This document shows, one piece after another, positions 2,590-62,984 of a stretch of DNA of 64,000 nucleotides. The notes under the pieces were generated by a model that ran no database searches, was not told where the DNA came from, and worked only from the letters and a program-made list of their open reading frames with translations. Each line of letters opens with the position of its first letter. The first letter of the stretch is position 1. The DNA comes from Blasia pusilla (taxonomy: Eukaryota): contig CM114271.1 of NCBI GenBank assembly GCA_050084515.1, positions 46,748,001 to 46,812,000 on the forward strand. Direction: 5' to 3'. The position numbers and the translations under genes were made by a program.

Positions 2590-5500
2590 ATGGTGCTGTG
2601 GCGACGTTTCTATCCTGCCCTTTTCCAGCAGGTTGTGAGTCTTCCTGTCATTGCAGTTCCTGCTGTTCACTTGCCAACGATTTTGCCCCAATGCTTCTTC
2701 CCCAGAGGGTTTCATGTCGCGGCTCGCTTGGAAGGAATTCAGGAGGGGACGTTGCCATTGGATGCCTACAATGATCTTGTGAAAGCTGGGGTCATCAAAC
2801 ACGATCAGGGACAGCTAGCAGCTTTACAGCCGTTGGAGCGATTACACGAAGAGCTCGAAAGTTACGAACCCCCTTTACATGGACTTGTTTCGAAGATTGC
2901 CTCGATCGTCAGTCTCAAGCCGAGGAGGCAGACACCAAGAGGGTATGTGATCACTTTTTCTGATCTCGAGGATCTCCAATAATTCGACGAGCAGCACAAT
3001 TTTGGGGGGGCCTTTTGTCTATTGACACGGCTTGCAAATTCGATAAAAACCATCCACAGCTCATAAAATTCTACAAATCCTCACGAAATTTTCTCAGAGA
3101 AGATGCTTGAAAAAGGAAGACATGGGCATCCAACAGGCTTTAACGCTACCATCTATCGTACTGAAGTGACCCTTTAACTTCAAATTTGGTAGTTAAGTCC
3201 TCTCGGCTCTGTTCCAATTGCGTTGCAGGGTTTACATCTATGGAGGGGTGGGTACAGGAAAAACTTTGGTAACAGACATTTTCTACCATTGCAGTCCAGT
3301 GAAGAGCAAACAACGCGTATATTTCCATCAATTCATGCTCGATGTACAGAAAAGGTCGGTGCTTCTGGCAAGTAGGATTGGTCCATGCTAGCTTCCAATC
3401 TGAATAACATAAATTCTCGCTGGTAGTATTCATCAAAAGAATGGAAGAAAAAGAAACTCATGTAGTGAGAATACTTGGTAATTGAACTTGGGTACCCATA
3501 TTCAGATTGAGGTGGTGAGAGTATTCTTGGGAATTGTCAAGAATTCTCTTACCCTAATACTTGGGCCCAAGTTAAAAAAAAGTCTGCCAACTTGTTTTGA
3601 GGCAGTTAAAACATACTTGAGAATTCTTGTTGGTTTAACTGTTTGTTATCTCTTGAACAGTGAAAAGTCAAGCTAGAATTCAGTCAGGAAAGTGAACGCT
3701 TCACACTACCTCCTGAAATGTCTAGTTTCTGATCTCAGGATGTTACTAAAAATGTGATGTCTGCCACCTTGATCTGAACACGGGTAAAACCTTGATCTGA
3801 ACATGGGTACTAGCTCAATATGGTGTAAACTAGTATCTTTTGTGAAATGGTTACTATAACCAACTTGGTAACTTATTTCACATTCATAACAATAAATCCT
3901 GGTCTGTGAGAACGTATTCAAGATATGCAGTGAAGCAGTCGCCTGGTTCATGGAGCTCGTAAACAATTTTTTTCATGCAGTGTCAATATGCTGGGCAGGG
4001 TGGATTGATGATGTGGAGTGGATATTTGCGGGACCCTATAGGTTGCATGAAGGAAAGATGAAAAGTGATAAGGGCAACAAGGGTGATGTGATGGAAGCTG
4101 TTGCCCACGACTTGTTGAGAAAAGGCTGGTTGCTCTGCTTTGATGAGTTACAAGTAAGTGAGTGCACCCACGGTTTTCAAAGGGGTGGAGTGAATCTAAT
4201 GTTTATTCTTTTAATTGAGTTGTCAGCCAAACTTTCTTGTGTCCCTCCACTGTCTTCATAGGTGTGCAATGTCTTGAAATATGGGTCTCAGAACTAGCAT
4301 ATGGAAATCTTGTGGTAGAGCTGAGTACGCGATGCTGTCGGCGTCTTCTTTTTAGCATAACTGTCGTTTTGGATGGCCTTTTAGCTATGAATCCTAGGAG
4401 AGGATCTTTTGACCTGAAGTAAATTGCTGTTTGTGGCAAGTAATCGTCCAGTCACTGTAGCAATGTCCTCAAAGAAACATCTTAAAATTGTGGGTTTTGC
4501 TGATCTAATCCCTTTATTGAAGGTTCTGGACATAGCTGATGCCATGATATTGAAAAATTTGCTGGAGAGCCTTTTTTAAAGCTGGAGCTGTTTTGGTTGC
4601 TTCATCAAACCGTGCTCCAACTGAGGCAGGTTTCTATGTTCTTATTTTGATGTAAAGATGGAACATTGCCCCCGAGAGGAACTTTGAACTTACGTGCTAG
4701 TTAGAAGAAAAATCAGATGCGAACAGTCTTATGTCTGACTAAGGTTGTGTTGGTGGTGCTCATGGTACGGGTGCCTGGCAAAGAACTGCGAGGAATAGGA
4801 TGATGTCCATTTTTGAGACCTTGCAAGTAGTTGACTTGCAGGATATTCCGCGAGATTGACCTCAAATTCTATACCTGCCCATCTATGTTATCAACAGGCG
4901 TATATACTACTATTTATAGCTTTTCATTTCTTTTGGTTATAAAATCTACCTCTTCTTCTTGACCCCAGACCGAGTTTTTAGATGTCTTTAAGCAGCTGCT
5001 TCGAGAATCCTTTTCACCATTTACGCTGCATCACAGAAACTCAGGCCTGAGTGTCTTCTAGTTTAGCTAGCAGCCTTCTGTTTGTAAACTTGTGAGCCCA
5101 GTTGAAAATAATTGGACCGAGATTGACGGACGGTTTTTTGCACTCGTGCAGCTTTATAAGAATGGATTGAATAGGGAGCTTTTTCTTCCATGCGTTGAAT
5201 TGATAAAGGAGCATTGCCATGTGCATCCTTTTCGGCCAGACGCCCCAGATTATCGCCTCATTGGTGTGAGTCCTAATGAAGCTGGGTACTGTCTCGTCAC
5301 CCTTGCTAGGGCAGTTTTAGAACCAGAATTTTTCTTTCTGCTTCTCTTCAAATGAGGACACAAGTTTCTCCACAACTGAAGAACTGTGAATCTAGAACAA
5401 TTCATGAAGACGCAAGCATAATGACATTCTTCCTTCATGTGACTAATTCAGATAAGACACTTAGAAGATACTGCTCTAGGTTGCTACTCAGATGCATCCC

Positions 5501-8500
5501 TTCAATTTTCTTACTGTATGGATGAACTAATGTTTGTGTAAGCGTTCTTGTGCGTGAACTTGGCCAGATGGATAACTACTGACCAAGGCCGCACTAAAGA
5601 AATGGAGAGGACGAGCCTTCAGACCTCGAATATACATTCGTAATATGCTACCCTAGACTGCCCTGGAAAGAAAGAACAAACCCCTTTTAATAAGTCAGGT
5701 TCGAGTCTTATTGGTGAAAGAACAGCGTCGGTGGTCATTGGATGTCAATTTTCATTTTCCTTTTGACTCTGGTGAGTGCTACATTGTGCAGTATGTATGT
5801 ATGTAAATTGGTCCAGCTTTGTTATGCCACTGAGTTTCTCCAGCAGAAATAAAGATGCTTTATGGAAAAGAATTCTTGCCCGTTCATCTCATGCTATCTT
5901 TGTCGAAAATCTGCACTAAACTCTTGATTCTAGTAGAGAGATCTGATTTGCTCTATGGTTTGCAGTGCGTTGTCTACTGTTTGGTACATGCCTCTCAATA
6001 AGGAAACAACACATAAACTTGAGCAATCATTTGCCGAGCTTGCAGGAAACAGGCCGGTAGGACCTACTGTTATTAAGGAGGGCACACGCACCATTATTGG
6101 TTAGATTCCTTCTTTCTAGTTCTCAACCTCTCTCCAGTCAGTGTTTTTCAGAATTCTCCATTTTGCTTCCATAGCTTGCGCGCAATGTTTTATAGTAGCT
6201 TTACTGAACTTCTCAAACTTCTTGAACACGGATGGAACTTATAGGAAACAGTTTCTTTCTTCTTTTCACTACACACGGTTGCTTAGTGAACAGAGGAGTA
6301 AATACTAACAAGGTCTGGTTCCTTTTCACAGTGCCAAGGGCAGCGGGTGGAATTGCGATTTTCACTTTTGAGGAGCTCTGTGGCACGCCGAAAGACGCTG
6401 CAGAATACGTAGTAATTGCGGCATCATTTCACACTGTGTTCATTTCTGGCATTCCGCGGATGACACGGGCCCACGGTGAACTGGTACATATTTGTCACCT
6501 GTACGTAAAAATGCACGAAACCATGAGGAAAGTCAATCATGATGATGATCAAGAGCGAAATCAAAAAAGGGTCACGTCTACACTCTATGAAGAGGCAGCA
6601 AGGGTTGCGTTTGCAGATCGGAGATTATGTGAATCTTGTGGTGCGGCAGAAATTTAAGCTAGCAGATTCCGAGGTGAAAACAACTAGTATTTTCAACTGA
6701 TGGGGTCCATTTTGGTGTAAAATGTGCAGGCCCGACAGTTCGTTACTTTGGTCGACGTTCTCTATTTGCAGGTGAACATCTGCCACAACTCAGGGCTACC
6801 CGATAGCAGTGAAAGTTACTAATGTGTGAAATCTGTGCCATATTCATGAAAGTCTATCACTCTTCGTGCTGACCTGCTGACTCGAAGAAAGGTGATTTTT
6901 TCCCAGGAAGTTCATGTTTGTGAGCTAGGGCATGTCCAGAAATATACTTTGTTCCGAATGATGCCAGGCGTTTGTAATACTTCCGAGTCTTACTGCTAAC
7001 TGAGACAGGAAGCTCTGTTAAAGACTGCCACTCACAGTAGTGATAGTCGTAAAGACCCTGTAGGAGTGATGGGTTTGCGTCCTTTATTCTGGAATGTAAA
7101 CTGGTCAAGTCATGAAATCAGAACTTCGTTTCTGCTTCAGCTACTTTTGTGATATGTGATCATGAATCTTGTTCTTGACAGAGGGTGAAGCTGATAGTCA
7201 GTGCCGATGCAGATCCCGGTAGCGTGTACCGGCCCAGGTACGCTTCACAGTGAAAACATTCGTATCTTATTCCTCAAAGCTTGCTAGATCATGGTTGGTT
7301 GCACGTACTGAAAGTGTTAGTTTGATTTTCGTTCGGAAGTCAGTTTACCAGCGAAGAAGAATACATTGGGAAGCATTTTGAGCGAAGAATGGTAGCCGCT
7401 GAGTCGACCTATGTATGTGTGGTACACTGGAAATTTGTCTAGGGAAGTAATTCCGAGAATGTCGCTGCTACAGACACGAAGAAGAACAAGTTGGACCTCT
7501 TGGCAGTGAGAGCGGAAAGCCATTGGCGAGTTCTTCATCGTACGTCGAGAGTGATGAAGAGCTTGCGTTTGCAAGGACTGTCTCTCGTCTACACCATATG
7601 CAGTCTGCAGAGTACTTGTCAGCCCCTTGGGTTCCACCAGGAAAGGCGCTTTTGGTCGATTTGTTTAGTATTAAGCTCCGCGAAGGCGATTTGCGCAGGT
7701 ACATCCGCAGCAAATCAATGGAAAGCTTCTTGCATCGTTTTTGTAGAGATGAAATGAAGACATGTCACTTGAGAACCGGTCCTGCCTCACTTGAGCTGTT
7801 TCCTCGAGCACACTCGAAATTATCATCTGTCTGCAGTACAGTCTCATTGCAGAGCTGCCTCTATTCAGAGATCAGCTAGCTGTCCTGACCATTCAATTCG
7901 CGCAGTGGGTTCATTTTCCTTACGCCTGTGACTAGGTTCTCCCATTTTGTCTGAATTGTACCACAAATAGTTGTAACTTCACGTAATTGAATTGATCGGT
8001 CTATGACACCCTGATCCTCCGGGAAGTTTAACGGGTTTCGCACTTGGAATGAGGATCTTATTTTATTGGTCAAACGACTCCGCAAACATTGAATGGTCGA
8101 TGTTGTATCTGGGTACCATGTGAGTAGAGCGTGTAGGCTAAATATGCCGTGTGTGTTAATGCCGTGAGGATTCACTGGGCGGATGTGCGTCTACTCAGGT
8201 GATGGAGTCTCCTCATCACTAACTGCGACAACCTGTTTCCTTCATTCAGGATATGGGACCGGTACAACACGGACCAGGATTCTACGCTGAGTCGCGAAGA
8301 ACTGCGGCTCATGATGGAGGACCTCACAGAGATGAAGTCAGGTCATCGAAACGTGTTCCCGGTGAGTTGCGTTGGACAGTTTTCCATCCAGTAGTGAGCA
8401 TGAGAAGTGATATATCATACAAGGGCTTAATCAACGGAGCTTATCTCCAGTTGAAGAACACTCATAAGATCCTTTAGGGTGAAAATTAGTGAACGACGCC

Positions 8501-8957: not shown

Positions 8958-11900
8958 GAGAGTGACATTTGTGACGATTGCGCCTGGTCTTTGGTGACTC
9001 CTCACTGTTAGCTGCAGTTCTAAGTACCTTGCCGTGCCTGTGGCGTCGCGATCTGGAATTTTGCCTCACACCAGCATGCGTTTGACGAACTCAAATCAAT
9101 ACCTGTTCCTAGCTCGACTTCTCTGTCCATATGCTCTCAACAAGTCTCCTGTGGATGGACCGCAGCCCGGGCTGGCTGCGTGTAAGTAGTGAGTGGTACG
9201 CGGGTTGGAAATAGTCAAGTTTCCACCGGTGGACCATACGTATTTCCCGCCATGTCCCCTTCCCAGAAGCTCAGCCAAGACCCGATGGGTATCTATATTA
9301 CCACAGGGAACACACGCTGCGCTGTAACATTCGCGGTACAGATCAAGCTTTCTTGACCCTCGCAACCTAGAATGTAAGCAAGAACGGATCCACACTGCCA
9401 TCCATCCCAGGGTAGCCCAACCACAAGCGCAATGTCACAGGCGGATCATAGCTGCTGTTTGTGAATCTCTTCGGCTCAGCGGATCGAGGGCTGCAGGGAG
9501 AAGATTTTGTGACCCACTCATGAATGTGTGGACTCACGTGGAAAGGAAAACATCTAGTCTAGAGCGAAGTCGAATAATTGTGAGGCCGAGACAATTGACG
9601 GTCCGATGAGAGTCCAAATGACGTGGTCTATGCGACCCACGATCCGGAGGGGTCGCGACGTTGCCCGAGTGAGTGACAGATGACGAGAGTCCGGAAAGAG
9701 AGGACCGATTACAGGGGTGGGCCCGTCGGCCGTGTTTCTTGAGTCGAGAAGGGGAACAGGATGCATACCACAGGGAATAATGCCCCACACAGCGCGCGCA
9801 AGGAGACATCGGAGTGATTGCGAATGATGCAACGGCAAGCATCGTTCTGGGAGACAAATTATCGACATGCGCGAAGCTATGAGTTCGAAACGAGAGCGAG
9901 AGCGCAGATGCCTTGGAGACCTTGATCTTGCTTTCGCTGCTCCTCGCTGGCGGACTGCCTGATGGGCGGGTGGGGCCCGAGAAACGCCTGGGATCATTTG
10001 CAACTTTGCGTTCTTTCTATAGCACGATTTTGTGCTCCGCGTGCGCTGGGCCCCTACTAGACCATCAGAACACAAAGCAATGCGAAAATAGTGCGCAAGA
10101 ATGAGCGATCGTTCGTGAGGGCGTGGGACGTTTGTTTTCCTCTGCTCCTCCTCTCCCCCGGGCATCCTGTCCCGAGCACTCCCTCCCGTCCCGGGCTCGG
10201 TTGTCCGTCCGTCCGCTCTCACCAGCCCGGTCGGTCTCTGCCTCGAGACCGGTCATCGTGGCACGAATGGTATCGCTCACTGATTTTCTTTAGGTCTCCT
10301 AATGCACACCCGTTTTCCCACGACTGGAATGTAGTACAGTACCTTCGCCTGGCCTCGGGTTGTCTGTCCGTCCTCTGATGAACTGCCATCTCCTGCGTCG
10401 CTCCCGACGCACGACAGGACTCAAGAACCTGAGCTGAGCCTGTCCCTTAACCCGGCCGCCAAGCTCAAGGCTCAAGGACGATTCTCAAGGCCGCCCCCCC
10501 GACTCCGGCACCGGTAGATTAGATTGCACCGACTGCCCCGCGGGATTAGATTAGATTAGATTACAGGTATATTATATTAGACGAGCGTAGATTACGGCAG
10601 GCAGGCAAAGATAGATGGGCCCCTAGGGGATCGATGCGCAGACCGTGGCAGACACGGTCGATAGCTAGCTCCCCGGTTCGGTTCGTTCGGCTCTGCTGGC
10701 CTGGTTGCCTGCCGGACCTGGCCGGTTGCGTGGGCCCATGCTCGCTCAGAGTTTCAGGTCTGTCAGCTCAATGCATGCTTGATCTCGTTCGTGCTTTTCA
10801 GCTGCGGTCATGTGCTTTGGGTCCCACCCTGCACGCTCGATCTCTTCACTGAATCGTCGCCGTCAACCGCTTTCCCATCCAGCTCCAATCCTTCAGACTC
10901 TCCGTTCGCTGCTAGGCTACTTTGGGGTACCACCCAACTACCCAACCGCGACTTTCCTTTCTCATTCGGCGTTAGCATGCCTCGCCTGACTCTCCAACAA
11001 ACAGCAGCCATTTATGACGCTTCTACTTTGTCCGCTTGCTCCTCCTCCTCCTCCTCCATGATCGGCGACCCCCCCATGCTCGCGAGATGCACACATCGTG
11101 GTGAGCCTAAGGAAGAGACAGCACCAGGTCGGGGCAGGCTCCGGAATTGTTCCGAAGGATTCCTCATTCTTTCTTCGAAACTGAGTGCCTCCGCTCCTTT
11201 AATGTCGCACTCCTTTTTCTTCCTTCGATTGCGGTCGCTCCTGAGGCTGATGCTCGTCGAAAGCACGCCGTACTCGTCCCTGCCTGCCTGCCTGCCTCCC
11301 CTCCTCCTCCCCTACTCCCCTACTCCTACTCGTCACCGAGTGCCTTCCATTTCTGCCACCATCCCTGGATCATACGACCCACACTCTTCTCGTTTTTGCA
11401 TCGCACGGCCGCTCGGACAACCAAAGCTAAGTCCATGGTCAGCCCGAAACCCTTTTCGACCTCGACCCTTACTCCCTTACGTCAATACACGGTTCATTCC
11501 CTCAGCTCAGTTTCAGCGGCCAGCTAGCCAGCCAGTCCTCGAAAAGTCATGTAGAACATGCACTCTTGTGCATGGCCGCAATGGAATGTGCATCAAAGCA
11601 TGAACTACAGTGTATTCCATTCAGAGATCCCGAGCACAACAACGCCATGACGAGGGCTACAGTCCAGAATTGATATGGATCCCACCGACTTTACAGTTGT
11701 CCTGCACAGGACTTCAGATACTACTCTAAATGCGCCGGGTGCTACACCAGCCATCATTCGTTCTCAAAGGCTATGCATTGCACGCAGATTATGTAGTACC
11801 TGAAGTCTTATACTTCGATTATTTCCGTCCGAAACCGTCCAATTCGCTCGTCATTGACGAGACCCTCGCGGTGTATGCAATCAGGGAGGCACCCGTTGGA

Positions 11901-14854
11901 TGAGCACTAACTCCTAAAAGTTGACGAAGTCACTAAACTCCCTTTCTTACACCTTTCGCTGGACTAGTGTCGCGCTGCTAAGATTGGTGCTGTTCCCAGA
12001 CCTCTCGCTAGCTCGAGATTGATATCATCCCATCACTTCATTGGGAACATGATAGCTTTTCAAGGACATGGCGGTGTACTCGACTAGGACTACGCTGTGT
12101 ACACCATGTGATGTGGTACATGTGGTAGTTGTCTAAAGATACCAGTAGTTGGAGTTAATTCCTGTCCACTTCCCGTCAAACCCGTAGTTCCTATCCAGCG
12201 CTGCTTCACTGGATTTATTCGGGACGGTACGCCTCAGCTCGATGAGTCATCAACCGTGATCGACCAATAGTCACCCGCTACGATACTATAGTAGGCTTAT
12301 GCCCCCCCCCACAACCACCCCCTTAAAGTACGCTCCTCTTCACCCGAACCTCGGAACCGTATTGTGGTAATATTGCCCAAACGTCTTGTAACGCTTTCTT
12401 ATCTCCACCATGGTACCGTGTGTCTCCCTAGTGTAGGCCGAAGCGGCCTACTATAGCTACCAGTCTTGCTAAAAGTCGCGGCCATCTGACATCTCCTTTA
12501 CACATTGACGTTTACACAAAGGTAGGAATCCTCCTATAGTAGAATTTGGAAAAACCCGCTACAACGCGCCTACACCTACTGCAGTAGCCTGCATCTTTCT
12601 GAGACAGTTAGCCCCATAGCCGAGTCTAGCTCCCACCGTAAAATATTATATCACTGCAGTAGGTTGGCATCTGCTTGCAACATTGACGCGTGAACCAGAA
12701 GCTCGGAAACGTAGTGCGGTTTAGTAGGCCTGCGTTGCGCGTACACCCAGATCAACGTCGTCCTCTCCTTACCGCAGTAACCGCGTCTCTCCCTACTACA
12801 GTATATCGCTTCTCCAATCATTGTACTTTTTTCTTTCAATAATAAACTTAGACATGCAGTGGGGTTACCCCAACGGACGGAGACAGGACAGATCCCCCCC
12901 GCCCCCTTGGCCAGTAGACTAAACCTCCTGCTTTTCTTCGCGGAGGATCTCCTAAGATCTTTCCCGGTGTTGAACGAATTACGACATCAGAGTCAGCGCT
13001 CCCATATAACTCCTTAAAACGGGGGAAGAGATGGGGCTGCTTTCATATCTGCACTCTTGTTTTCAACGTCTAGATTATAATTTTGGGGCATATTGAATGT
13101 GACAAAAGCTTTTTTGTGAGTTTGGTTATGACAAGTGTACGACTAAAGAAAGACGACTAATAGAAGAATTGGGTTAGTATGTAAAGAAAATAATCATTGC
13201 CTATGCATGTAACTGCTTTTTTTTTCCTCTCTTCTTATAGCCTATCCATGTGGATTCCACTCGTCGTGGTCTATTCAAAATCTCTCGCCCCACATGTAAT
13301 TTTCTTCCCACACTCTCAAAAGGACCACACATTGGTTTTGTTGGGAGAAAACGCATGGCGGTCCCATGGGGTGAAAATCATTTTGATCCCTAGTCTAACA
13401 TGTAAACTCTATAGAACTCAAATCCTCTAAAAGCCCCTCTCTATGTGGATTCTATTGTAAATTAAGACAAAAATACTACATGGACGACAGACTTACACCA
13501 TAATGTACTTATATAAAAGTTCAAGTAATCTCATGAGAAATGGAATAGAAACAAGTTTAGGGACACTTTGAATATAGAATAGACATTTGAGAGAAGGTGA
13601 GAAATATACAAAACACATTTAATACTAGCCATTCCATACAACAATGAATACAATGGAAAGAAATAACATAGAAAAATTGAGAGACACATTATATCAGTGA
13701 ATGAAGAAATAAGAATTACACTACACAAGGGATTCGATATAGAGAGTCAAGAAGTACGACACAAGGATGAAGAACAAATGGACTCTGTTTTAGCGACCTT
13801 GGTTAACATTTTCCTCAACCTAAACAAGCTATATAGAAAATGGGGATTTCAATACATACAACCTACTTCAATACACTATGAAGCAACCTTGCCCTTTTGA
13901 TACATACGTGCCCTTATATAACATCAACATTGGCGTTTAAGTACATAATATAACCCTATGTACTTAAAATGGTAAGTAATGAAGGTTAGTACTATGCGGA
14001 TATTGTTCCACATCATGTTTACGCTCTGCTAGCCACTCTATGTGCACTAAATAGAAAATGCACTTGTGGCATTGTCTTGACGCATACTGCGAAATGTAGG
14101 CACTATGTAAGTGGGGACTATATTAATGAAGCTCCAATACAAAGACTATCAAGACAATAAATAACATAACTTAAGGATGCACAACTTATCTAGTTCATAG
14201 TGAGAGTTCTATTATATCTTCAATGTAGAGAACTTGTGGATTGTTTGGTTATATCTTTGTGTGAGTGCTCGAATAAAGTTGGTTGTAGTGTTTTTTTATC
14301 AAGGTTTCAAGGTTTTTGACATATTCCCTTCTTTTTTTCCTTTGTCACGTCTTTTAAGATAGATCGGTGAGATCTAGTAGGGCGCCTTCATGAATAATGG
14401 AGGACAGGCTCAATAGGTTGAGGATGACTTGTTGAGGCCTCGGAAAACCTGAGAGAGCAGGTTTCCCCTTCGTTTCGCTCATTTGGAGCCATATTTAGGA
14501 ACTTACTATTTTAGGTAAGTACCATTTTGAATATATGATCGACTTTCTATTTTTGGAAAATGGTCCTTGACCTCCTACATCAGGTCAAGAGCCAAGGAGG
14601 TGACTTGGGAGAATAGGTTACCATGGAGAGAGCTTGGGAGAGGGGAGGGGTATACCTCAAGGAGAGAGAGTTTGAGAGCTCATTCTCTCTTTGTTGAACC
14701 TCTTGGCATAAGGCGGCGGAGCTATGGTCCCTTGCCTTGTGAGTGTAATCCAAGCCTCTCATTAGGAGAGTGGGTTTGGTTTGACATGAGAGAGAGTGCA
14801 CACCTTTGAGAGCTATGGTGTGAGATGGTGTAAAGAGAGATTGGATCTTACTTT

Positions 14855-14870
14855 ATAAAGAGAGAATGAG
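14855..14870 (+). promoter_or_regulatory. Putative self-priming primer-binding site, family A
   Basis: ATAAAGAGAGAATGAG directly after a1 is complementary (one G:U) to CTCATTCTCTCTTTGT at 14679-14694, about 30 nt downstream of TATA at 14651. Confidence 0.7.
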
Positions 14871-16427
14871 AGAGTGAGAGAGCTTCATGGGGGAGTTCGC
14901 TGGTCACTTGCTGTTTTTGCAAGTTGGGGATCGTGTTCCCCGTTCAGCGGCTCATGAGAGTACTCACCAGAGCAAGGGCTTCTTTGATTGTTCTTTGCAT
15001 TTGCTGATTTTTCATGTGGAAGAGTGGCGCGCGGAAGCGCTGCCCAATTTTTGATAGGGATTGAGTATGGGGGTGAGTTTCCCCATGCCAGTGCTCTCGG
15101 GAGCACCATGTAGCTTGCTGATTTGTATTTTTATAGGTTTTACATTTTCTTTGGGAGAAATCAGCGCGGAAGCGCTGCCGAATTTTGTGTTGGAGAAAGA
15201 GACATTGGGCTTTACGATAATCCCTGTCAATTTTGACTAGAATGTCCGATTTTAAATATTTTTAATGCTATCGTAGATCGTAAAGTTATGCACATTGTGC
15301 AACAAACAATGCACAATTTGGAGTTGCGAGCAAAAAGTTATGGTCAATCTTGCAAAACTGTCATTGCTAGGCAATTTTTAGGGTTAAATTGTTCAAACCC
15401 TAATCAGCCGCCACGCCGGCGGCGGCTGTCACCATCCAGTCACCGTCAACGGTCTGCCATCAACGGTCAACCATCATCATCAACGGTCAACCGTCACCGT
15501 CACCGGTCGGTTTACACCATCAACGGTCAATCGTCACCTTCAATGGTCCATCGTCCGTTGTCCACCCTTTGGTTGCCATTGCCGCTGTTACGGCGTGGAG
15601 GGTCTTCCACGACGTTCGTTGATTCTCTTACTTGCGTCGCCACCACGTACTTTGTTTTGGCCGCCATCGTCATCGCAGTTTTGTCATCAACCAATGATGG
15701 CAGATGAGTTTTGATTTCATGCTGCTATGTTGTGATTGGTAGCTGTTCGACGACGATCGAGTACCGTGCCGTGACGCCCGTAGCCGCAACGCACCGCCAA
15801 TTGCCGCGCCGTGCTACTCGTGGCCGCACCGCACCGTCTCGATCACGGAGCCGCTCCATCATTATGGAGCTGAGTGTGGGTTTATTGTTGATTGAGGAGG
15901 GTATGCCGCCAAGTGCCGCATCGCACCATCGAGGGCCGTGCCATTCGTAGCCGGTCCGTGCCACCTGCAACGTCGCACCGTTCCGCTGGAACCGCACTGT
16001 CTATCGAGGAGTTTTGAGCAGCGTTAGTACGGGAGGAGTATGACTTGCAGATTGGAGGAGTTGTCTCCACGACCGAGTTGGGGTCGAGATTTGCAGTTGC
16101 TGAGGAGCGACATCGACATGTGTTTAGGTTATCCATTATGGTCCTTTACCCTGCACGTGTAAGGGATTCTGGGATTTGGGTAGTTTATTTGGGGATATTG
16201 GGTGTGTGGATGGTGAGAGCATCATTTATGTATGTGGTTTAGGGGACATAGACCTCTGTGGGATGTTCGGAGTTGAGGGTAGGTTATCGATGAGATGATA
16301 GCCTGGTCGATTTGCCGCACCACGCCGCTTGTTGCCGCACGTTACACGTCTCGGGGAGGGAGACTGTAGATCGAGTGCCGCATGTTTGGGATGAGTGATT
16401 GAGGGATTACTTGCAAGGCGAGAGTGA

Positions 16428-19400
16428 TTGGGTGAGAAGGGCACGAGGGTCATCACGGCGTCCATTTGGGACTTTGAGAGACGAAGTGGTGAACCTGAGA
16501 GTAGCTCTAGAGGTTTTACGCGGAGTGGCGCGAGGTTCCGAGTGTCTCCACGTGAGGGACCACCTCCACCTCCTTCTGTGTCATTGTCAGACAAGGAGGA
16601 GGGTGTAGAGGAGTTTGTGAGCACATTGCCACACATTGTGAGTGGTCATACCAGTTGGGCGTATGAGATGGACGACCCGGGTAGAGGACCGCGTAGCTTT
16701 TCAGGTGCAGTAGGTACAATTGAGTTGCACGATTTCATAGCAGAGTTTAGGAGTTGGTGCGACTCCCAACGGACCAGGAACTCTAGAGAGTTCAACCCGT
16801 TTACAACATGGAACGATATGTTCCAGCATTTAGAAGGGGCGCCCATGGACGATTACCATGAGTTCTCTCAAAGATATGCACGTGAGATCGAGGCGTGGAG
16901 GCTCTACTATGACCTACATTATGTGTCATAGACATAGCCGTTCCCAGATGAGGAGGAGGAGTCAGGAGAGGCTACTTCCTCTTCCACTAGTGACGTTTTA
17001 AGAGGGATCACTCGCACGGGAGCAGTTCCACCGTGTAGTCGGGTTTGTCCCAGGTTCAACCCTGTGGTTGAGTTCTTTGTTGAGTTGAGGGTGAGCTACC
17101 AGGGGGTACGGACGGAGAAGTTGCGGAGCATCCACGACTTCTAGAGGCGCCCGGGTGAGAGTTTTCGTGAGGCTTACACTTGCTTGCTCTGGTTGATCAA
17201 TGTCACTCAGGGGGTGACAGAGGCTCAAGCTATCCAGTCATGGTACGCGATGTTGGACCGGACCCTGCGGACACGTGTGCGGGAGGGGGTGCTTCTTATG
17301 AACACCTCCCCTACGTTGAGAGATGTTTTTAGGACCGCCGAGAACATTGAGCGCAACATGGCGGAGGAGAGCATAGCCACCATGGGTTCTGGGCGAGAGC
17401 AGTCGCGATTGTCTGCACCACATGTGCAGCAATGTGGACTCCGAGATAGGTCGACTGTAGCACCACAAGCTCAGGGAGCATACCGGGAGGCCATGCCACA
17501 GAGACCTGGGCCTTCATATGCGGCTCAACAGCAGCCGCCTACTATCACTTGTTGGTCATGTCGTGAAGCCCATCATCAACGCGATTGCACTCGTCAGGGT
17601 CATGGACGTGTGCCTCAGCATCGAGGGGAAGATGGTGCTGCACCAGGAGGTTATTAGTGTGACTATTGTCAGAGGTATGGTCATACACGCGCCAGGTGTT
17701 TCAGTTTACATCCTGAGTTACGTCCGGACCGAGGGCTAGAGAGGGCACCAAAGCGAGTAGCCGGTCCGGGTGGGCCTAGAGATCGTGCACCAGGTGGTCT
17801 CGTTGGGGAATGAGGAGGTGGAGTTGCCCGATAGGGTGGTGGAGTTCCCCGAGGAGGAGGTAGAGTACCATCACCTAGATGCACCGAGGGAGACGCGGGA
17901 CGTGCGGCTGGGATGGTTGCTCAAATACAAGAGCTACAAGAGCAGATTGCCGCTATGGCATTGAGGTTACCCGATGCCGAATGTGTGGCATCAACATCAT
18001 ATGGAGCAGCCAGAGACATGGAGGATCCTGGTTGGATGTGCGGGGCTACCCTGATGGAGGCAGCCACAGTTGTGACGCGTGGAGCAACAGTAGAGTTGGA
18101 TCCATAGCGAGGGGAAGCCAGGAAACAAACTAGGCTTCCTCAGTCTTTCACGTTGTTTGAGGCGATGAGAACCCCATCGATGGGTCCTGATCAGAGTTCT
18201 TGGAGAGTTGGTGATGTTGTTGGTGTGCAGGCACAGAGGGCGATAGGAGAAGCAAGTGCGATGACTCCTATTGTTGATGCTCAGGAGGGGCATATGTCGA
18301 GCACGTTGTTGGGGGCGGCCACCATTGTGTACCGTGCTCCTTTATTTTCTACTTCCAATGTTATGACGTTGGGGGGTACGCCCGCCGAGGCTTTTCGGCT
18401 GGCCGCTTCACTATGTGAGCGTGGAGTTGGAGTTCCTACATCACATTCACAGGTGATTGCAGAGGAGGTGATGGACCTGCCCTTGGAGCAGATGCTCGGG
18501 CCGTCCACGTCAGATTCATGGCAGGCTACGGCGGCTAGGATGGTGGAGATGCCCGCTAGACCCGCGATAGAGCGTGCCATGGCTTCTCCTGGTGTTGTGT
18601 TGCTGGATAACCGAGGAGAGGTCTTCCAATTGGTGAGTCCTAGAGATAGAGCTTTTAGTCCGCAGCGCGTCTTGTTGGATTCAAGAGCGCAACCCTTGAT
18701 GTTGGGGAAAGCGTCATTTAGAGGATTGGGCTTGACAAGAGCCGATGTGGAGCGTTGTCCATTCCGGATACAGACATCCTTGGATGGAGCGAGTACCACA
18801 CAATATAATATATTACCCGACAGGAGGTCGTGGTGAGGATTCGCGCGGGACATCCTACATATAAGTCCGTGGTGCGAGCCAAGGCGATAGTGACTGATGC
18901 AGAGTCCTACGACGTCTTGGTTGGTGGAGCAATGTTATACCCGATGGGGTTTTCCCTGGATTACTGGGAGGAGTCAGCATCCTACAGACTAGGATGGCAG
19001 TTAAATGATGGGTGCCTTACCTCATTACCCGTCCGATTCACATGTGCAGTGATCGAGCAACGTCCAGGAGAGATGGCGACCTTAGCAACATTTAGCAGTG
19101 CCATCACTTGGCCTGGTGATTTGATTGAGAGACATGTCCATACAGAGGATACTCCCATTCTTAACATTTCTATGGAGAGGAGTGTTATGGTAGCCGCATC
19201 ATTCCGTGGAGGAGAGGTGCCGCTGTGGGGCTCGACTGAGGAGCTTTGATGATTGGTAGATGAGCACGTGCAGACAGTGTGGACCGAGGCGTTTGCACCG
19301 GAGCGTGACGGGTTTGAGGAACCCGAGGTAGCAAGGAGTGCTACGATGACACCCTTGGATACCACACCCATTATGCGGTGTACCCTGGAGGAGGGTATTT

Positions 19401-20955
19401 GAGTGTTGGATCTCTTTGGAGGGATTAGCACCGGGTTAGCTACTGTTTTGCAGGCAAGAGCGCGAGTACAGCAGTACATGTATGTAGAGAGTGATGATGT
19501 TGCAAGGCGCATGTCACTACGATATGTGGCACAGTTACGCCTACGTTTTCCCAACTTATTGTCTGCGTCTGCAGTATAGGGGTACTAGAGTTCCCTACCG
19601 AGGGATATTTCATTATTGGGGGCACATGACTTAGAGCGGGTCGGGACCATTGATTTGGTCATTGTCGGTTGGCCATGTCAGGGCCAATCGAGTGTTGGAC
19701 AAGGCAGCGGGTTGGCTGACACTCGATCCATGTTGTTTTGGGAGATGTTGAGGGTCTTACGGTAGTTGAAGGAGCACCAGTCTCGTTCTCCAGCCTACAT
19801 TCTAGAGAATGTGCGGATCTTAGGAGACTCCATGTCATGGGTGGTGACGAGTGCTCATCAGGTATGTGCTTGGATCGGCCCAACAGTGTTCTTGGATGCG
19901 GCGAGTGTAGGTTCTAGAGCCCATTTCCCATGTGTATGGTGGACCAACTTGGTGCCCCATGCGGTGTTACAGAGGGCGTATGCGAGAGTGGAGCGCTCCT
20001 CCCATTTGTTAGTGGATTCCATTCTGGATCCAGGTCGTCGATCACACGAAGTGAGGCACGATGATGGACCACCGTTGACTGTGGTCAACAAGGTAGGCAG
20101 GCCGCGGGCAGCCTTGCCCACGTTTGTGAGTTTTCCCACTTCTTAGGCATACAAGGAGGCCCGTCCTAGCTTGGTTTGGACCAAGTTCAGCGGTTGGTGG
20201 AGCCCAACGCCGACGAGAGAGAGCGAGCGATGGGATTTCCCACACGAGTGACGGTAGTACTGTCAGTGTCAGAGGCATTACGACGCCATGTCTTGGGTTA
20301 GGCGATGGCTCTGGATTGCTTGACATGGATCCTCAGCTTGGGAGTGGTTGAGTAGCGCCGTATGAGATCGCGACAGATCACAGCGGTTGCGTTGGTGAGC
20401 CCCATGCCTACCAAGACGGTGGAGGCAATGGCTGGGGGCAAGACCCGGGGAGACCTACACACCAGGGGAGATCGGGAGAGATACCCTTGGACTTCTTGGG
20501 ATGTTTTGCAGGTACGCCATGAGATGATAGCCACAGCATCGAGCGTGGTTCCAGACACTACATGTGGAGGAGATCAGAGTTTGCAGTTGGGTGCAGGAGA
20601 GCGGCCGAGTGTTGTTGTTTGAGACAGGGTTGCACCATAGCAATCACCAATACCCGCGCTGGAGAGTCCTACCGTAGTCACGATGGAGACTTGGGAGCCA
20701 GGTATGGGCCCTAAGTTGACAAGAGGAGAGCGGCGCTGGTTACATCAGTTCCTCACGAGTTATAGGAGTTGCTTTGCGTTTAGCATGGAGGATTTGGGTA
20801 CGCTGAAGGGACCGGGGATCCGCATTGAGTTGTCGAGTGATACGCCGATCTTCCGACGATCCTACAGGTACAGTGATATGGAGAGGACTTTGATTCAGAG
20901 TAGGAGCCAGTACATGGTCGGAGCAGGACTAGTGGAGATGTCGCATGGGGAGTAT
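16428..20955 (+). pseudogene. Degenerate gag-protease-DNA methyltransferase-RT(N-term) polyprotein of element A-I
   Basis: Gag with two CCHC knuckles (CWSCREAHHQRDC, CDYCQRYGHTRARC), aspartic protease (VLLDSRAQPL), MTase motifs, RT start (PIFRRSYRYS). Many TAG/TGA stops and two small frameshifts. Confidence 0.88.
19394..20343 (+). pseudogene. DNMT3-like C5 cytosine methyltransferase domain within the A-I polyprotein
   Basis: Motif I GI*VLDLFGGISTG, II YMYVESD, IV DLVIVGWPCQG (TGGCCATGTCAG 19670-19681), VI YILENV, VIII AHFPCVWWTNL, IX ERERAMGFP, X RHVLG*AM. In frame with the protease C-terminal region upstream and RT downstream, apart from a 4-nt deletion near 20175. Confidence 0.85.
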
Positions 20956-23900
20956 TGTCGTACGCATACACATCGCTACACAACATACATCTATCACCGA
21001 ACATACACACAAACACGCACGATCCCATGCTAACTCATGGCATCCAAACAACGAGACAAGATGTACTAAAATATCTCCAATAAAGTAAGATCCAATCTCT
21101 CTCTACACCATCTCACACCATAGCTCTCAAAGATGTGCACTCTCTCTCATGTCAAACCAAAGCCACTCTCCTAATGAGAGGCTTGGGTTACACTCACAAG
21201 GCAAGGGACCATAGCTCCGCCGCCTTATGCCAAGAGGTTCAACAAAGAGAGAATGAGCTCTCAAGCTCTCTCTCCTTGAGGTATACCCCTCCCCTCTCCC
21301 AAGCTCTCTCCATGGTAACCTATTCTCCCAAGTCACCCCTTTGGCTCTTGACCTCATGTAGGAGGTCAAGGGTCACTTAACAAAAATAGAAAGTTGACCA
21401 TATATTCAAAATACTACTTACCTAAAATAGTAAGTTTTCTCAATATGATTCCAAATGAGCCGAAATGAAGGGGAAACTTGCTCTCTCAAGTTTCCCGCGG
21501 CCTCAGCAGGTCATCTTCGATCTACTGAGCATGTCCTCCATAACTCATGAAGGCGTTCTACTAGATCTCACCGATCTATCCTAAAAGACGTGATAGTTAT
21601 CGTGGGCATACACATCACTACACAACATACATCATTATCATCGAACACACACACAAACACGCACGATCCCATGCTAACTCATGGAATCCAAACAACGAGA
21701 CAAGAAGTACCAAAATATCTCCAATCGTCCCCCTAAATGGTGGTTAGGTCTCTCTAACTCCAGATAGCCCTCTATCTCTATCTACCATGACATACATCTC
21801 TAGGATGCTAAGAGCAGAAAGGCTAGGTGCTCATGTGGCCCCATCGTTAGTCGCCTTCCTGTCATCCATGTCACATAAAAAGTCGGAATCGAAACCTACC
21901 TAGTATCTCCTCTATATACATTTGGGACACATCCATCGTCCCCAAGGAACCCTAGTGAGAGGTGGCGTCAAACATGCCATATGCCAACCTCTCGAACATC
22001 CATCACAGACTAGCATCATGGCCGCACCATGGGTAGAACCACACAACATACAACGCAAGCCTGCAGGAACTATTGCTAAGCTCGGATCTACTCTACCAGC
22101 AATGTTAGGAAGGTCACATGGCGCACAATTACGCACATGGTCCTTCCATACCATACCATCGCGTCCCTCCAGCAAGAGAACATCGGCTGGCAAAACGTCA
22201 CGCACTCTCAAGATAATGCGCCTATAGTCACATCCAACATCATTGGTGCCGTCTGCTGCAAGTAGATATAATATTCCTGATGAAACCTCCAGATAGTTGG
22301 TCGATAACCACCACCCTGAATAGTCGCATACATCAACGTATCCCGATGCTGCGCAATCGCCAAGTTCTCGAACGCCATGGGCATCACTCTCCGAAACAAC
22401 TCAGCCCTCTGAGAACATGCTCGCATCCATACATCTGGGTCATCAAGGTCCAAAGACTCACCAAAGATCTCGACGAATGGCCGTAGGTAAATCTGGCTCT
22501 CGGCCATAAAGTAGCAAGTACGGTGAAAAAGACGCTAAGGATGCCTGCTTGCTGAATATGTATCCCATCGCCAACCAGGGCAACTGGAGGTCCCAATCTC
22601 CTAGGTGACCTCTTTGCAAGCCATACTTGCGTAAACCCCTCTTCACCGTCTGCACAACTCTCTCCGCTAATCCATCCGCCTCGGGATGATCTCGCGAAGT
22701 CGTACGATGTTCGATGAGTGCCTGATCACACAAGGCCTGGAACTCACCGCAAAACTCGGTACCATGGTCTATCAACACCTCAGCCGGTGCGCCATAATGA
22801 CTCAGCTTTTTGTCAAGGAAGGCATAAGCTACTCCCGCAAACGATTTTTTAGGCAATGCAACCAACTCGATCCACTTCGAGAAGTGGTCGACCATCACCA
22901 ACACATAACGACTGTGACGCTCCGTCAAAGACAAAGGTCCTACAAAATCCAAACTCCATCTATACCCTAAGCCCATGATTGGTAATGGATGCAACTGTGG
23001 AGTCGCAGCATTGAACGATGCTCGGACCCGATCACACACCATGCACACTGGCAACAAATTGTTGAACGTCACTCTGCATACCTCGCCACCAATTCTGAAT
23101 CTGGAGCAAGTTGTACGTCCGCTTCACCCCAAAGTGACCCAACTCCTCGTGGGCATGCTGCACTAGTCGTACTCTCTGCGAAGGATGCGGCACTACGCGT
23201 ACTCTGCCATTCTCCCAAACCCTCAAAACATGCGTCCCCTCCCAACGGAACCGTCTGGCCCGCTGTAGGATCCGATCCTGCTCTCTAGCATCCACGGTGC
23301 TCGCAACACTGCCATACGAACGTACTCCAAGACTACTCCATCATCATGAATATCTCGGCCACTTGTCGTCTCCTCACTGGCCTCGGGATCCAATGACTCT
23401 CCACTAGACCTTGCCATCAAAATCTCCACTCTCAGGCTCTCCATAGCCAACATGCCTAAATAGGCTAACGCGTGCCATCTTGGCACTGACTCCTCATCAC
23501 TCTCTCCATGCCATCGAGCTTCAGTCGTATCTCGTTGACTCGGGCATGGGTTACGACTCAACCCATATGCATCTTGGTTGAGCGTCCCATGTCTCTGTAC
23601 CACCTGAAAATCATAATCCTGCAACAAGAAAGCCCATCAATCATATTCCTGCAACAAGAGAGCCCATCTCGCAAGCTTCCCTGTAAGCTTGTCGGACTCC
23701 ATCAACCACTTCAGTGGTTGATGATCAGTGATGATGGTAAAGGGATTGCCAAATAAGTAACACCTAAAATGCACGACAGCCCACACCGCAGCCAAGCACT
23801 CACCCTCATACGAGTTGTACTTCGCCTCTGCAACGTTGTTTGAGCGGCTAGCATAAGCCACCATGAAATCTCTACCCTCATCATCATGTTAGGTGAGCAC

Positions 23901-26900
23901 CGTTCCAAGCCCCAACATGCTCCAATCTGTGTGCAACTGGAAAGGACGCCACGGGATCGGTCTTCTCAAGATGGGCGCAGACGTCAATCTATCCTTGAGC
24001 AACTTAAATGCTCGCTCTTGCTCATCCCCCCAGTGCCACTCATGATCCATCTTTGTCAACAAGATCAAGGGCTTCGCAATCAAACTGAATCCCTTGACGT
24101 ACCGCGGATAGAAGTTCGCCAATCCCATGAATGCGCAAACACGGCTCACATCTGTAGGGCGTGGAATGCGTGAGATAGCCTCTACCTTTGTATGTTGAAC
24201 ACCAAGGCCCCTTGGGTATATCGTATGACCCAAATACTCAATCTGGTCGTAGAAGAACTTGCACTTGCCTGGATGTAGCTTCAGCCCATGTAATTGCAAT
24301 CGTCGAAACACCTCCTCTAGATGTCACTCATGCTCCTCAACCGTGGCCCTAAAGACTATGATGACTTCAATATAACACCTAGCAAAATCCAGACCAGCCA
24401 AGATCCTATCCATGACCCTTTGAAACTCAGTGGGGGCGTTCTTTAACCCAAATGGTGAGAACCGCCACTGGTACAAACAATCCTTCCCGTGAGGATCGAT
24501 GCCCCAAAATACCGTCTTCTGCCTGTCCTCCAATCTGATAGGCAGTTGATGGTATCCCGCTCGTAAATCCAATGAACTGAAGACCTTTGCGTGACCAATC
24601 GTATCAAAGATCTCCTCAAGGATGGGCATGGCATACCTATCGGACTTCGTCTGTCGATTGATAGGTCGGTAATCCCCACACATCCGCTTATCCGTCCAGT
24701 TGCCATGTACATCCTTCTTGGCGGGCATGACAACGGCACATGCATACTCCCCATGGGACATCTCCACTAGTCTTGCTCTAACCAAGTCCTGGCTCCTACT
24801 GTGAATCAAAGCCCTCTCAATATCACTGTACCTGTAGGGTCGTCGGAAGATCGGCGTATCACTCAACAACTCAATGCGGATCCCCGGTCCCTTCAGCCTA
24901 CCCAAATCCTCCATGCTAAATGCAAAGCAGCTCCTATAACTCGTGAGGAATTGATGTATCCGGCGCCGCTCTCCTCCTGTCAACGTAGGGCCCATATCTG
25001 GCTCCCAAGTCTCCATCGTGACTAGGGTAGGACTCTCGGGCGCGGGTATTGGTGGTTGCTATGGTGCAACCCCGTCTCGAACAACAACGCTCGACTGCTC
25101 TTCTGCAGCCAACTGCAAACTTTGATCCCCTCCACATGCAGTGCTCGGAACCACGCTCGATGTTGTGGCTATCATCTCCTAGCGTACCTGCAAAACATCC
25201 AAAGAAGTCCAAGGGTGTCTCTCCCAATCTCCCGTGGTGTGTCAATCTCCTCGGGTCTCGCCCCCGGCCACTACCTCCACCGTCTCGGTACGCATGGGGC
25301 TCACCAACGCAACCGTTGTGATCTGTCGCGATCTCATCTGACTCTGCTCAGCCACCCCCACGCTGAACATCAATGTCAAGCAGTTCAAGTCCATCGCCTA
25401 ACCCAAGACATGGCGTCGTGATGCCTCTGATACTGACAGGATTTACGTCACTCCTGTGGGAAATCCCATCGCCCGCTCTCTCTTGTCGGCGCTGGGCTCC
25501 ACCAACCTCTGAACTTGGTCATCCTAAACCAAGCCTAGACTGGCCTCCTTGTATGCATAGGAAGCGGGAAAACTCATAAACGTGGGAAAGGCTGCTCGCG
25601 GCCTGCCTATCCTTTTAACCACAGTCAGCGATGGTCGATCATCGTGCCTCACTGCTTGTGATCGATGACCTGCATCTAGAATGGAATCCACTAACAAATG
25701 GGAGGGGCGCTCCACTCTCGCATACGCCCTCTGTAACACCGCATGGGGCAACAAGTTGGTCCACCATAGACGCGGGCAATGGGCTCTAGAACCTACACTC
25801 GCCGCATCCAAGAACATTGCTGGGCTGATCCAGGCATGCACCTAATGAGCACTTGTCACCACCCGTGACCTAGAGTCTCCTAAGATGGGCACATTCTCCA
25901 GAATGTAGGTTGGAGAACGAGATTGGTGCTACTGCAACTGCAGTAAGACCCTCAACATCTCCCAAAACAATCTGGACCGAGTATCAGCCAACCCGCTACC
26001 TCGTCCAGCACTCGATTGGCCCTGATATGGCCAACCGGCAATGACCAAATCAATGGTCCCTACCCGTTGTAAGTCCTGCGCCCCCAACAATGAAATATCC
26101 CTCGGTAGGGAACTCTAGTACCCCTGTACCGCGGATGCAGACAATAAGTTGGGAAAACGTAGGCGTAAGAGCGCCACATGTCGTAGTAAGACGCGCCTCG
26201 CAACATCATCACTCTCCACATACAGGTACTGTTGTACTTGCACTCCTTCCTGCAAAACAATAGCTAACCCGGTGCTAATCCCTCCAAAGAGATCTAACAC
26301 TCGAATACCCTCCTCCGGGATACACCAAACAATGGGTGTGGAATCCAGGGGTGTCATCGTAGCACTCCCTGCTATTTCAAGTTTCTCAGACCCGTCACGC
26401 TCCGGTGCAAACGCTTCGCTCCACGCGGTCTACACGTGCTCATCTGCCAATCATTGGAGCTCCTCAGTCGAGCCCCATAACGGCACCTCTCCTCCACGGA
26501 ATGATGCAGCTACCATAACACTCCTCTCCATAGAAATGTTAGGAATGGGAGTATCCTCTGCATGGACATATCTCTCAATCAAATCACTAGGCCAAGTGAT
26601 GGCACTGCTAAATGCTGTTAAGGTCGCCATCTCTCATGGCCGTTTCTCGATCACTGCACCTGTGAATCAAACGGGTAATGAGCTAAGGCGCCCATCACCT
26701 GACTGCCATCCTGGTCTGTAGGACGCTGACTCCTCCCAGTAATCCAGGGAAAACCCCATCGGGTATAACACTGCTCCATCAACCAAGACGTCGTAGGACT
26801 CTCCATCAGTCACTATCGCCTTGGCGCGCACCACAGACTCATCTGTAGGATGTCCCGGGCGAATCCTCACCACGACCTCCTCTAAGGTGATATACTGTGT

Positions 26901-26960
26901 GGTACTCGCTCCACCCAAGGATGTCTGTATCCAAAATGGACAACGCTCCTCATCGGCTTT
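20956..26960 (-). mobile_element. Family A element, nested antisense copy (A-II), 5'-truncated: PR C-term, MTase, RT, RNaseH, integrase, PHD, then PPT-b-a-b
   Basis: 3' end CGACA at 20956 interrupts the RT of A-I. b2 20956-21080; a2 21081-21595; b1 21598-21724; PPT 21725-21737. RT (RMCGDYRPIN, LDLRAGYHQ, PFGLKNAP) ~23889-25016; RNaseH (LHTDWS, TDHQPL); integrase (HAHEELGHFG..CMVC, WSLDF, LIDHGTEF, GLAER) ~22208-23200; PHD ~21918-22053; MTase ~25355-26309. Confidence 0.9.
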
Positions 26961-62980: not shown

Positions 62981-62984
62981 TATT

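Follow-up and report, generated by a model that had tools for sequence, protein, structure and literature searches.

Putative self-priming in split-repeat, integrase-encoding retrotransposons of Blasia pusilla

What primes reverse transcription in a retrotransposon whose 5' repeat is followed by no TGG-type tRNA binding site? The question is raised by a stretch of 64,000 nucleotides (nt) of Blasia pusilla (GenBank assembly GCA_050084515.1, contig CM114271.1, positions 46,748,001 to 46,812,000, forward strand), which is termed the window below. According to self-comparison and Pfam scans of stop-to-stop open reading frames (ORFs), nested and decayed retrotransposons of three families (A, B and C) are present in this window. 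An earlier note on the same DNA had proposed that these elements prime from the predicted 5' end of their own RNA in the manner of Tf1 of fission yeast (Schizosaccharomyces pombe), an element that uses 11 nt for self-priming.

Complementarity at the repeat border

In the following, a denotes the repeat found at the 5' end (copies A1 and A2), b the second repeat that accompanies it at the 3' end (copies B1 and B2), P the predicted primer binding site (PBS) and P' the stretch within a to which P is complementary. The 5' parts of the elements are:

14343-14856, plus strand: family A 5' repeat A1, starting TGTCACG and preceded by the target duplication CCTT at 14339-14342 (self-BLAST and alignment)
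14651-14654, plus strand: TATA-like box of family A (GGTATAC), 28 nt ahead of the paired stretch
14658-14693, plus strand: local hairpin of family A (P*-loop-P') between the TATA box and TGAACC, -16.9 kcal/mol, z -1.83
14679-14694, plus strand: P' of family A, the predicted first 16 nt of the transcript, PBS-complementary and abutting TGAACC
14855-14870, plus strand: P of family A, the predicted primer binding site, overlapping the last 2 nt of A1; the minimum free energy (MFE) fold pairs it with the 5' end
30543-38575, plus strand: 5' part of family B copy 1, with A1 at 30543-30889, P' at 30735-30747, P at 30890-30902 and the duplication ATGC at 30539-30542
38576-48288, minus strand: family B copy 2, a complete element inserted into copy 1 and flanked by the duplication AATG, with A1 at 48288-47921, P' at 48095-48085, P at 47920-47910 and B1-A2-B2 at 39153-38576
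62064-62546, plus strand: 5' end of family C, with A1 at 62064-62528/32, TATAAG at 62320, a hairpin at 62327-62362, P' at 62351-62364 and P at 62533-62546

Each of the three window families has, from the end of repeat a onward, 11-16 nt whose reverse complement occurs within a. The coordinate pairs given in the earlier note could all be reproduced, with duplexes of 16, 11, 13 and 14 base pairs (bp): 14679-14694 with 14855-14870 in family A (16 bp including one G.U pair, 14 contiguous Watson-Crick pairs), 48085-48095 with 47910-47920 in family B copy 2 (minus strand, 11 bp), 30735-30747 with 30890-30902 in family B copy 1 (13 bp with a G.U pair, 10 exact) and 62351-62364 with 62533-62546 in family C (14 bp, perfect). 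In these four elements the first paired base follows the first T of the TATA-like box by 28, 28, 31 and 31 nt, P' lies 178, 155, 175 and 178 nt ahead of the end of a, and P starts between -2 and +4 nt relative to the repeat end. On its 3' side P' abuts a conserved TGA(G/A)CC in each of the four. For this cross-family comparison the leaders were anchored on TGARCC by script; a MAFFT alignment had misplaced family A.

Since no BLAST-detectable similarity exists among the a repeats of the three window families, these can be regarded as three separate cases. The statement that the primer sequences differ while pairing and TATA spacing are kept is borne out by own-family matches and a spacing of 28-31 nt in 4/4 elements. 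The pairing also emerges from RNA folding, which the earlier note had named as a check: with the ends of the folded stretch chosen by the analyst, the predicted MFE folds of the leader are closed by the P'-P stem in 3/3 families (z = -4.39, -2.37 and -3.30).

The frequency of such matches by chance was estimated from 20000 random anchors in the window, at each of which 24 nt were compared with the preceding 450 nt for an exact reverse-complement match. Matches of at least 14 nt were obtained at 30/20000 anchors (0.0015) and of at least 11 nt at 126/20000 (0.0063).

Further copies were retrieved from metagenome contigs by alignment of integrase relatives, with 479 of 600 matched stretches confirmed and 80 loci kept (L001-L080), among which L006 is the same place as L004, L047 as L021 and L043 as L042. 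These loci include relatives of family B as well as a fourth family, D, and a fifth, E. In family B, P pairs with P' over 17/17 nt in L004, 16/17 in L022 and 12 nt in L027. Family D has its own P and P' sequences, which pair over 15/15 nt in L064, over 15 nt with one G.U pair in L053 and over 14/15 in L059 and L076; its P' lies 31-32 nt after TATAAAA, and it lacks both the hairpin and TGAGCC.

Where a leads into the internal region, 7/18 copies have an exact match of at least 11 nt, versus 0/19 copies where a leads into b; the null frequency for these loci is 0.0061. When the families were compared with one another in a matrix, 6/7 rows had their longest match within the own family (A, B group, C and D), the rows of L022 and of the window copy of family B being tied or exceeded by related family B copies only. 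Within family B, pairing is seen in 84% of the cells, and in 30-49% once the partner is shifted. Compared with L004, L022 has two neighbouring changes in P', each of which is matched by a complementary change in its PBS.

The leaders past the PBS contain two additional recurrent motifs. A conserved (C/G)ATGG lies 13-20 nt past the PBS in families A, B and C (14885-14892; 47893-47900, minus strand; 62558-62565) and might represent the initiation codon of the first ORF. The family A leader contains two occurrences of a motif around GCGCGGAAGCGCTGCC..AATTTT (15027-15051, 15163-15186), and the family C leader one diverged occurrence (~62662-62680); the motif may serve packaging or dimerisation as a leader signal.

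Priming of the minus strand

In replication of the long terminal repeat (LTR) type, the end of the repeat is set by the annealing position of the minus-strand primer's 3' end. In the present elements A1 and A2 correspond as far as the start of P, of which A2 has just the first 1-4 nt. The P nucleotides retained at the end of A2 are AT in family A and A in family B; in family D, C plus A, AA or AAT is found in 7/10 independent copies, and CAT, CAATC and TAAG in the others. Past these few nucleotides A2 runs into b, whose first base is the base that follows the G-run polypurine tract (PPT) upstream of B1. Judged from its sequence, the A2/B2 joint looks like the joined 5' ends of both nascent strands with a small remnant of the primer kept, and would therefore locate minus-strand initiation at the border of a and P. 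Sequence evidence of this kind fixes the presumed strand starts, the minus strand at the border of a and P and the plus strand at the border of PPT and b. The A2/B2 joint is more variable than the b/a junction; L008 has an extra 19 nt here (2670-2690), and L069 and L079 a 12-nt duplication of the repeat end (~3270-3300).

Since the repeat ends where the pairing begins, P sits where the minus-strand primer must anneal, and for this reason self-priming appears to be the best reading. We consider it likely that P is the minus-strand primer binding site and that the primer is P', the predicted 5' end of the element's own RNA, similar to Tf1. What can be observed directly is the complementarity as such, where it lies, that it is family-specific and recurs in independent contigs, and that the repeat boundary coincides with the start of P. 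The proposal that Tf1-like self-priming operates here is supported in silico by this position, specificity and recurrence and by the absence of the match from copies of a followed by b. Its corollary, that the U5 end is fixed at the end of a, holds in the sense of reverse transcription but not of integration, since the ends joined by the integrase are the start of a and the end of b. Repeat a is for the same reason not a whole LTR; it is only part of a repeat system with a b-a-b 3' end that went beyond the description in the earlier note.

Alternatively, P' and P could form a long-range RNA stem (U5-leader, circularising or packaging), while a host tRNA or tRNA fragment primes further downstream. 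Stretches containing TGG do occur 11-35 nt past the repeat end, the short (G/C)ATGG after P is conserved in families A, B and C, and stable leader folds are expected of any structured 5' untranslated region. However, a primer annealing 11-35 nt downstream would place P inside the repeat, yet A2 ends without P. At the repeat border itself no TGG is present in any of the five families and no P sequence begins with TGG, in agreement with the earlier claim that no TGG-type site follows a (none in the first 10 nt in any window family). The first TGG after a lies at about +33 in family A, +11 in B and +31 in C, while the first 40 nt past the repeat contain none in family D. The TGG stretches furthermore differ between the families beyond “ATGG”, although one would expect a common tRNA site in related families of one host. 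On these grounds, priming by a tRNA seems unlikely. As a separate result, tRNA genes were not detected within the 64-kb window.

Several observations weigh against self-priming from P'. The TATA boxes are weak in families A (GTATAC) and B (GTATAG). The complementarity in other families, on which the earlier note had made its proposal depend, is kept in family D (15/15 in L064), but it is weak in family E, where 7 nt are exact and 11/12 pair with one G.U, and where the own-family match is not the longest of its row. In many old copies (L005, L021, L035), P' has mismatches or deletions and little pairing is left. The covariation that the earlier note expected across many copies is seen between the families as own-family matches, but not within family B, where two pairs changed on both sides are reached by 114/500 shuffles and both come from a single sequence; as this count is not significant, the covariation of P and P' appears to be mainly between families. 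L004 moreover contains a second PBS-complementary stretch (TTCTTTGAGTGG) about 85 nt before the repeat end (~1930-1945). Finally, in families A, B, C and E P' doubles as the 3' arm of the local hairpin, the 5' arm of which lies upstream of the predicted start, and the hairpin would compete with the PBS if transcription begins further upstream. As a separate observation, TTCTTTGAGTGG adjoins a conserved GAGTGGGYTTGG block and is found at the same place in L005, L010, L035 and L047, but not in family B of the window.

The hairpin, which lies between the TATA box and TGARCC in families A, B and C, bears on a variant of self-priming with a different primer end: the RNA could start upstream of the hairpin, or the primer could derive from P' of the 3' repeat or from a second RNA. 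The retention of P*-loop-P' in families A, B, C and E fits such a variant, and pairing of the PBS region with the hairpin over its full length is possible in L004 (24 bp, 3 of them G.U), which suggests that the pairing once reached upstream of the predicted start. On the other hand, the distance from the TATA box to the first base of the perfect duplex (11-17 nt) is 26-32 nt in every family, and family D does without the hairpin. We regard this variant as improbable, to about the same degree as the tRNA. The hairpin might hide the P' copy of the 3' repeat, or its presence might indicate an RNA that begins further upstream.

That the complementarity is a DNA-level inverted repeat (for recombination, integrase binding or strand transfer) or chance low-complexity GA/CT sequence is highly improbable: family A is rich in GAGA tracts and a functional-looking palindrome exists elsewhere in the elements, at the b/a junction, but the null distributions, together with the finding of five different sequences in one and the same position, exclude chance, and it is the start of a and the end of b, rather than P or P', that serve as integrase ends.

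Split repeats and a possible route of replication

The remaining copies and parts in the window are:

27598-28369, plus strand: family A 3' end, with a G-run polypurine tract just upstream, B1 at 27598-27727, A2 at 27730-28245, B2 at 28246-28369, the junction CACGATA-AC-TATCACG between B1 and A2 and the duplication CCTT at 28370-28373
20956-26958, minus strand: second copy of family A, inverted and 5'-truncated, with RT, RNase H, H2C2, rve and PHD; b-a-b at 20956-21727
48289-50143, plus strand: 3' part of family B copy 1, with the PHD region, the polypurine tract, B1 at 49561-49667, A2 at 49670-50036 and B2 at 50037-50143; right-hand duplication ATGC at 50144-50147
60955-61594, minus strand: solo-like a-b unit of family C ending ..GCGCACGACA, without internal region and without matching target duplication
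63050-63559, minus strand: further family A copy of a, joined directly to an RT-region fragment (62953-63048), the PBS and the whole 5' internal part being deleted

The integrated unit is A1-internal-B1-A2-B2, with a alone at the 5' end and b-a-b at the 3' end. This is the split layout of DIRS-order elements; two complete identical LTRs flanking PBS and PPT are not present. The termini of the unit are TGTCAYR...CAYGACA, thus of the TG..CA type. Target duplications of 4 bp are found in the window (AATG at 38572-38579/48285-48292, ATGC at 30539-30546/50137-50147 and CCTT at 14339-14346/28360-28373) and at the loci L004 (AAGG), L021 (CATA), L052 (AATA) and L022 (TACA); L035 and L059 retain 3/4 positions, and L064 and L041 show none. 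The elements do not conform to a DIRS-type tyrosine-recombinase element without target duplication, since an rve integrase and duplications are present instead. The borders of family B copy 2 were set by comparison with the uninterrupted sister sequence and are exact: the copy begins with TGTCATG (start of A1), ends with CACGACA (end of B2) and is flanked by AATG. When contigs of the runs X1, X15, X16 and X18 were compared with 38500-48400, all joints could be explained by a and b occurring twice; some stretches were left uncovered in runs guessed to be RNA. In family A, the region 18740-28366 is rearranged in that about 2.4 kb of the outer copy have given way to the inverted 5'-truncated copy (20956-26958), an arrangement that is not a simple nested insertion.

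The B1/A2 joint consists of CAYGACA, 2 nt and T(G/A)TCATG in about 40 copies (27716-27736, 49656-49676 and, on the minus strand, 39040-39060 in the window; L001-L080). It is a near-palindrome with the spacers GC, AC, AT, GT and once TC, and with frequent TA in place of CA/TG. Nearly all variants can be derived from CAGCTG by C>T or G>A. They resemble the decay products that methylated CHG sites would be expected to give. By its sequence the joint has the appearance of an LTR-LTR circle junction, one that the element carries internally. Judged by its motifs, a followed by b is the layout of a canonical LTR (TG..TATA..start....CA), with the internal region between A1 and B1. A GT-rich composition of b resembling U5 was also considered and found to be weak: G+T amounts to 0.65-0.71 in b of families A, B and C, but to 0.53-0.59 in D and E (0.56-0.63 in the a repeats).

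Host flank, and in no case b and the junction, lies upstream of a in 15/15 independent 5' copies; the other permutation was not seen. The 5' copies were judged by eye, with same-place loci counted once and L010, L067 and L076 left out owing to missing or decayed context. About 30 3' ends continue past b into the junction and a, or a and b, and nine independent ones stop at the end of b without junction-a-b (L011, L022, L031, L041, L042, L049, L062, L068 and L074). Among the latter, L022 is an a-internal-b element with a perfect duplication (TACA). The a-internal-b ends may be recombinants between B1 and B2 or primary products.

Replication by self-priming would presumably proceed as follows. 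The transcript would begin about 30 nt after the TATA box inside the repeat, at P', and the RNA would fold back so that P' anneals to P. RNase H would cleave at the inner edge of the duplex, directly 5' of the conserved TGAGCC; the duplex end at TGARCC is the sole hint that bears on the release of the primer by RNase H. The freed oligonucleotide would prime synthesis across the 115-178 nt between P' and P, and the strong-stop DNA would be transferred to the same sequence in the 3' copy of a. The plus strand would start at the G-run polypurine tract before B1 and copy the primer, so that the PBS would be rewritten from P' in each cycle; PBS and P' would therefore covary between families without any selection. 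We infer the transcription start from the TATA spacing, as well as the RNase H cut and all strand transfers.

On an RNA that extends from A1 to A2, standard strand transfers would yield (b-junction-a)-P-internal-PPT-(b-junction-a). The integrated form differs from this predicted product, as it reads a-P-internal-PPT-b-junction-a-b, a circular permutation opened at the palindromic b/a junction of the left copy. It may have arisen by circle formation and a one-sided cut, or by extension of the right end on the left b after the integrase has nicked the left junction; both routes are guesses. A further possibility, which we consider less likely than not, is that self-priming in a bryophyte/charophyte lineage of integrase-encoding gypsy-type elements is followed by integration of the cDNA in circularly permuted form. 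In the RNA, the canonical LTR (a plus b) would then be split, with the U5-like b following the polypurine tract and being joined to U3 by a ready-made LTR-LTR “circle junction” (..ACA GC TGT..). The cDNA ends (minus-strand 5' end at the border of a and P, plus-strand 5' end at the border of PPT and b) would become joined, and the integrase would open only the junction of the left copy.

If this permutation is correct, the regular substrate of a DDE integrase would be an internal palindromic site in place of DNA ends, and the same logic of self-priming might explain the primer of tyrosine-recombinase elements with this repeat layout. The odd repeat layout becomes a testable replication scheme, in which the predicted cDNA ends, the junction of the joined ends and the junction to be cut are all named. 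As relatives are present in the laboratory liverwort Marchantia, RNA 5' ends and extrachromosomal cDNA can be sequenced there.

Coding capacity and related elements

Pfam scans of the window copies revealed the domain order reverse transcriptase (RT), RNase H, H2C2 zinc domain, rve integrase and a C-terminal PHD finger, that is the Ty3/gypsy-type order of RT, RNase H and integrase (rve plus H2C2). For the intact homologue P0009 the best solved relative was the Ty3 Gag-Pol polyprotein (7q5b, E 1e-91). Among 1990 candidates, 134 proteins were related to the integrase at E <= 1e-10; those named come from the liverworts Calypogeia, Riccia and Marchantia as well as from Sphagnum and Klebsormidium. 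A comparison with the Protein Atlas yielded generic integrase clusters only and did not narrow the lineage. Pfam detected no tyrosine recombinase or phage-integrase family in 54 + 40 ORF translations, and no gag, protease or recombinase family in the 5' 6 kb of the elements. The interval of about 6 kb between PBS and RT (30890-36500; 42000-47900, minus strand) holds long ORF fragments without a Pfam family.

A C-5 cytosine DNA methylase domain was found in the pol ORF of seven relatives (P0025, P0028, P0046, P0056, P0061, P0085 and P0114). One of them also has a chromodomain, namely the distant relative P0114, which carries PHD and Chromo; the window copies show neither a methylase domain nor a chromodomain. 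In addition, the window contains, at 6226-7876, 54220-54726 and 10665-11600 (all plus strand), probable host gene fragments (AFG1-like ATPase exons and a nucleotidyl-transferase exon) as well as a GC-rich ORF of 312 amino acids without family match.

Self-priming has been recorded for Tf1/sushi elements and predicted for the plant lineages Tcn1 and TAR, and in total for 12% of the plant LTR elements surveyed, as stated in portions of Neumann 2019 (PMC6317226). With Tf1/sushi the present elements share a PBS directly after the 5' repeat that is complementary to the element's own RNA start (here a predicted one), a duplex of about 11 nt or more and the lack of a tRNA-type TGG site. They differ in that a PHD finger instead of a chromodomain is located at the integrase's C-terminus (Pfam detected no chromodomain after rve in the window copies, as would be typical of the chromovirus type), in a duplex of 11-17 nt, in a hairpin that overlaps the predicted start and in their split repeats (a..b-a-b). 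Tcn1 of mosses and club-mosses and TAR (Ty1/copia) are, in the same portions of the literature, likewise plant elements of bryophyte-grade hosts without a tRNA PBS and with predicted self-priming, and no PBS was found in SM-Tcn1 (Novikova 2010). In contrast to the elements described here they are presented there as ordinary LTR elements, and Tcn1 has a chromodomain.

In the parts of PMC9940879 that concern them, the Chlamydomonas Gypsy elements REM1 and Gypsy-7a_cRei also have a Ty3/gypsy-type polyprotein with a PHD finger. However, the PHD finger precedes the integrase, the LTRs are depicted as ordinary ones of which the left is 8 bp shorter, and no priming relation is described in these parts.

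A repeat layout of this kind is noted in a single statement in the legend of Fig. 4c of de Mendoza 2018 (PMC5890265), according to which KnitGypsy-Dnmt3 of Klebsormidium nitens combines a DIRS repeat structure with Gypsy domains. The relatives of the window integrase include Klebsormidium proteins that combine RT, RNase H, integrase and DNA methylase, whereas Pfam detected no DNA methylase domain in the window copies. Neither the portions of PMC5890265 at hand nor other literature searches yielded a priming mechanism, a junction analysis or target duplications for KnitGypsy-Dnmt3. This legend is the only report of split repeats together with a DDE integrase in the literature covered; the supplements of Neumann 2019 may list this lineage.

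Split direct repeats of the type A1-B1A2B2 are otherwise described, in the relevant passages of PMC4157794 and PMC7192593, for the tyrosine-recombinase elements PAT-like, Ngaro and VIPER, and the primer of DIRS-1 is stated to be unknown in a passage of PMC7192593. The layout of PAT-like, Ngaro and VIPER (A1, internal region, B1-A2-B2) is the same as described here; while these elements encode a tyrosine recombinase according to the same passages, the present ones have a DDE integrase with H2C2, 4-bp target duplications and TG..CA ends.

Taken by itself, the priming claim adds one lineage, the PHD-integrase elements of liverworts, mosses and Klebsormidium, and self-priming as a known mechanism in a new lineage with an unusual architecture is the best-supported reading of the data. 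More unusual is the combination of a retroviral-type integrase, target duplications and TG..CA ends with split repeats typical of tyrosine-recombinase retrotransposons, and the proposed integration of a permuted, split LTR is a more surprising feature than the self-priming.

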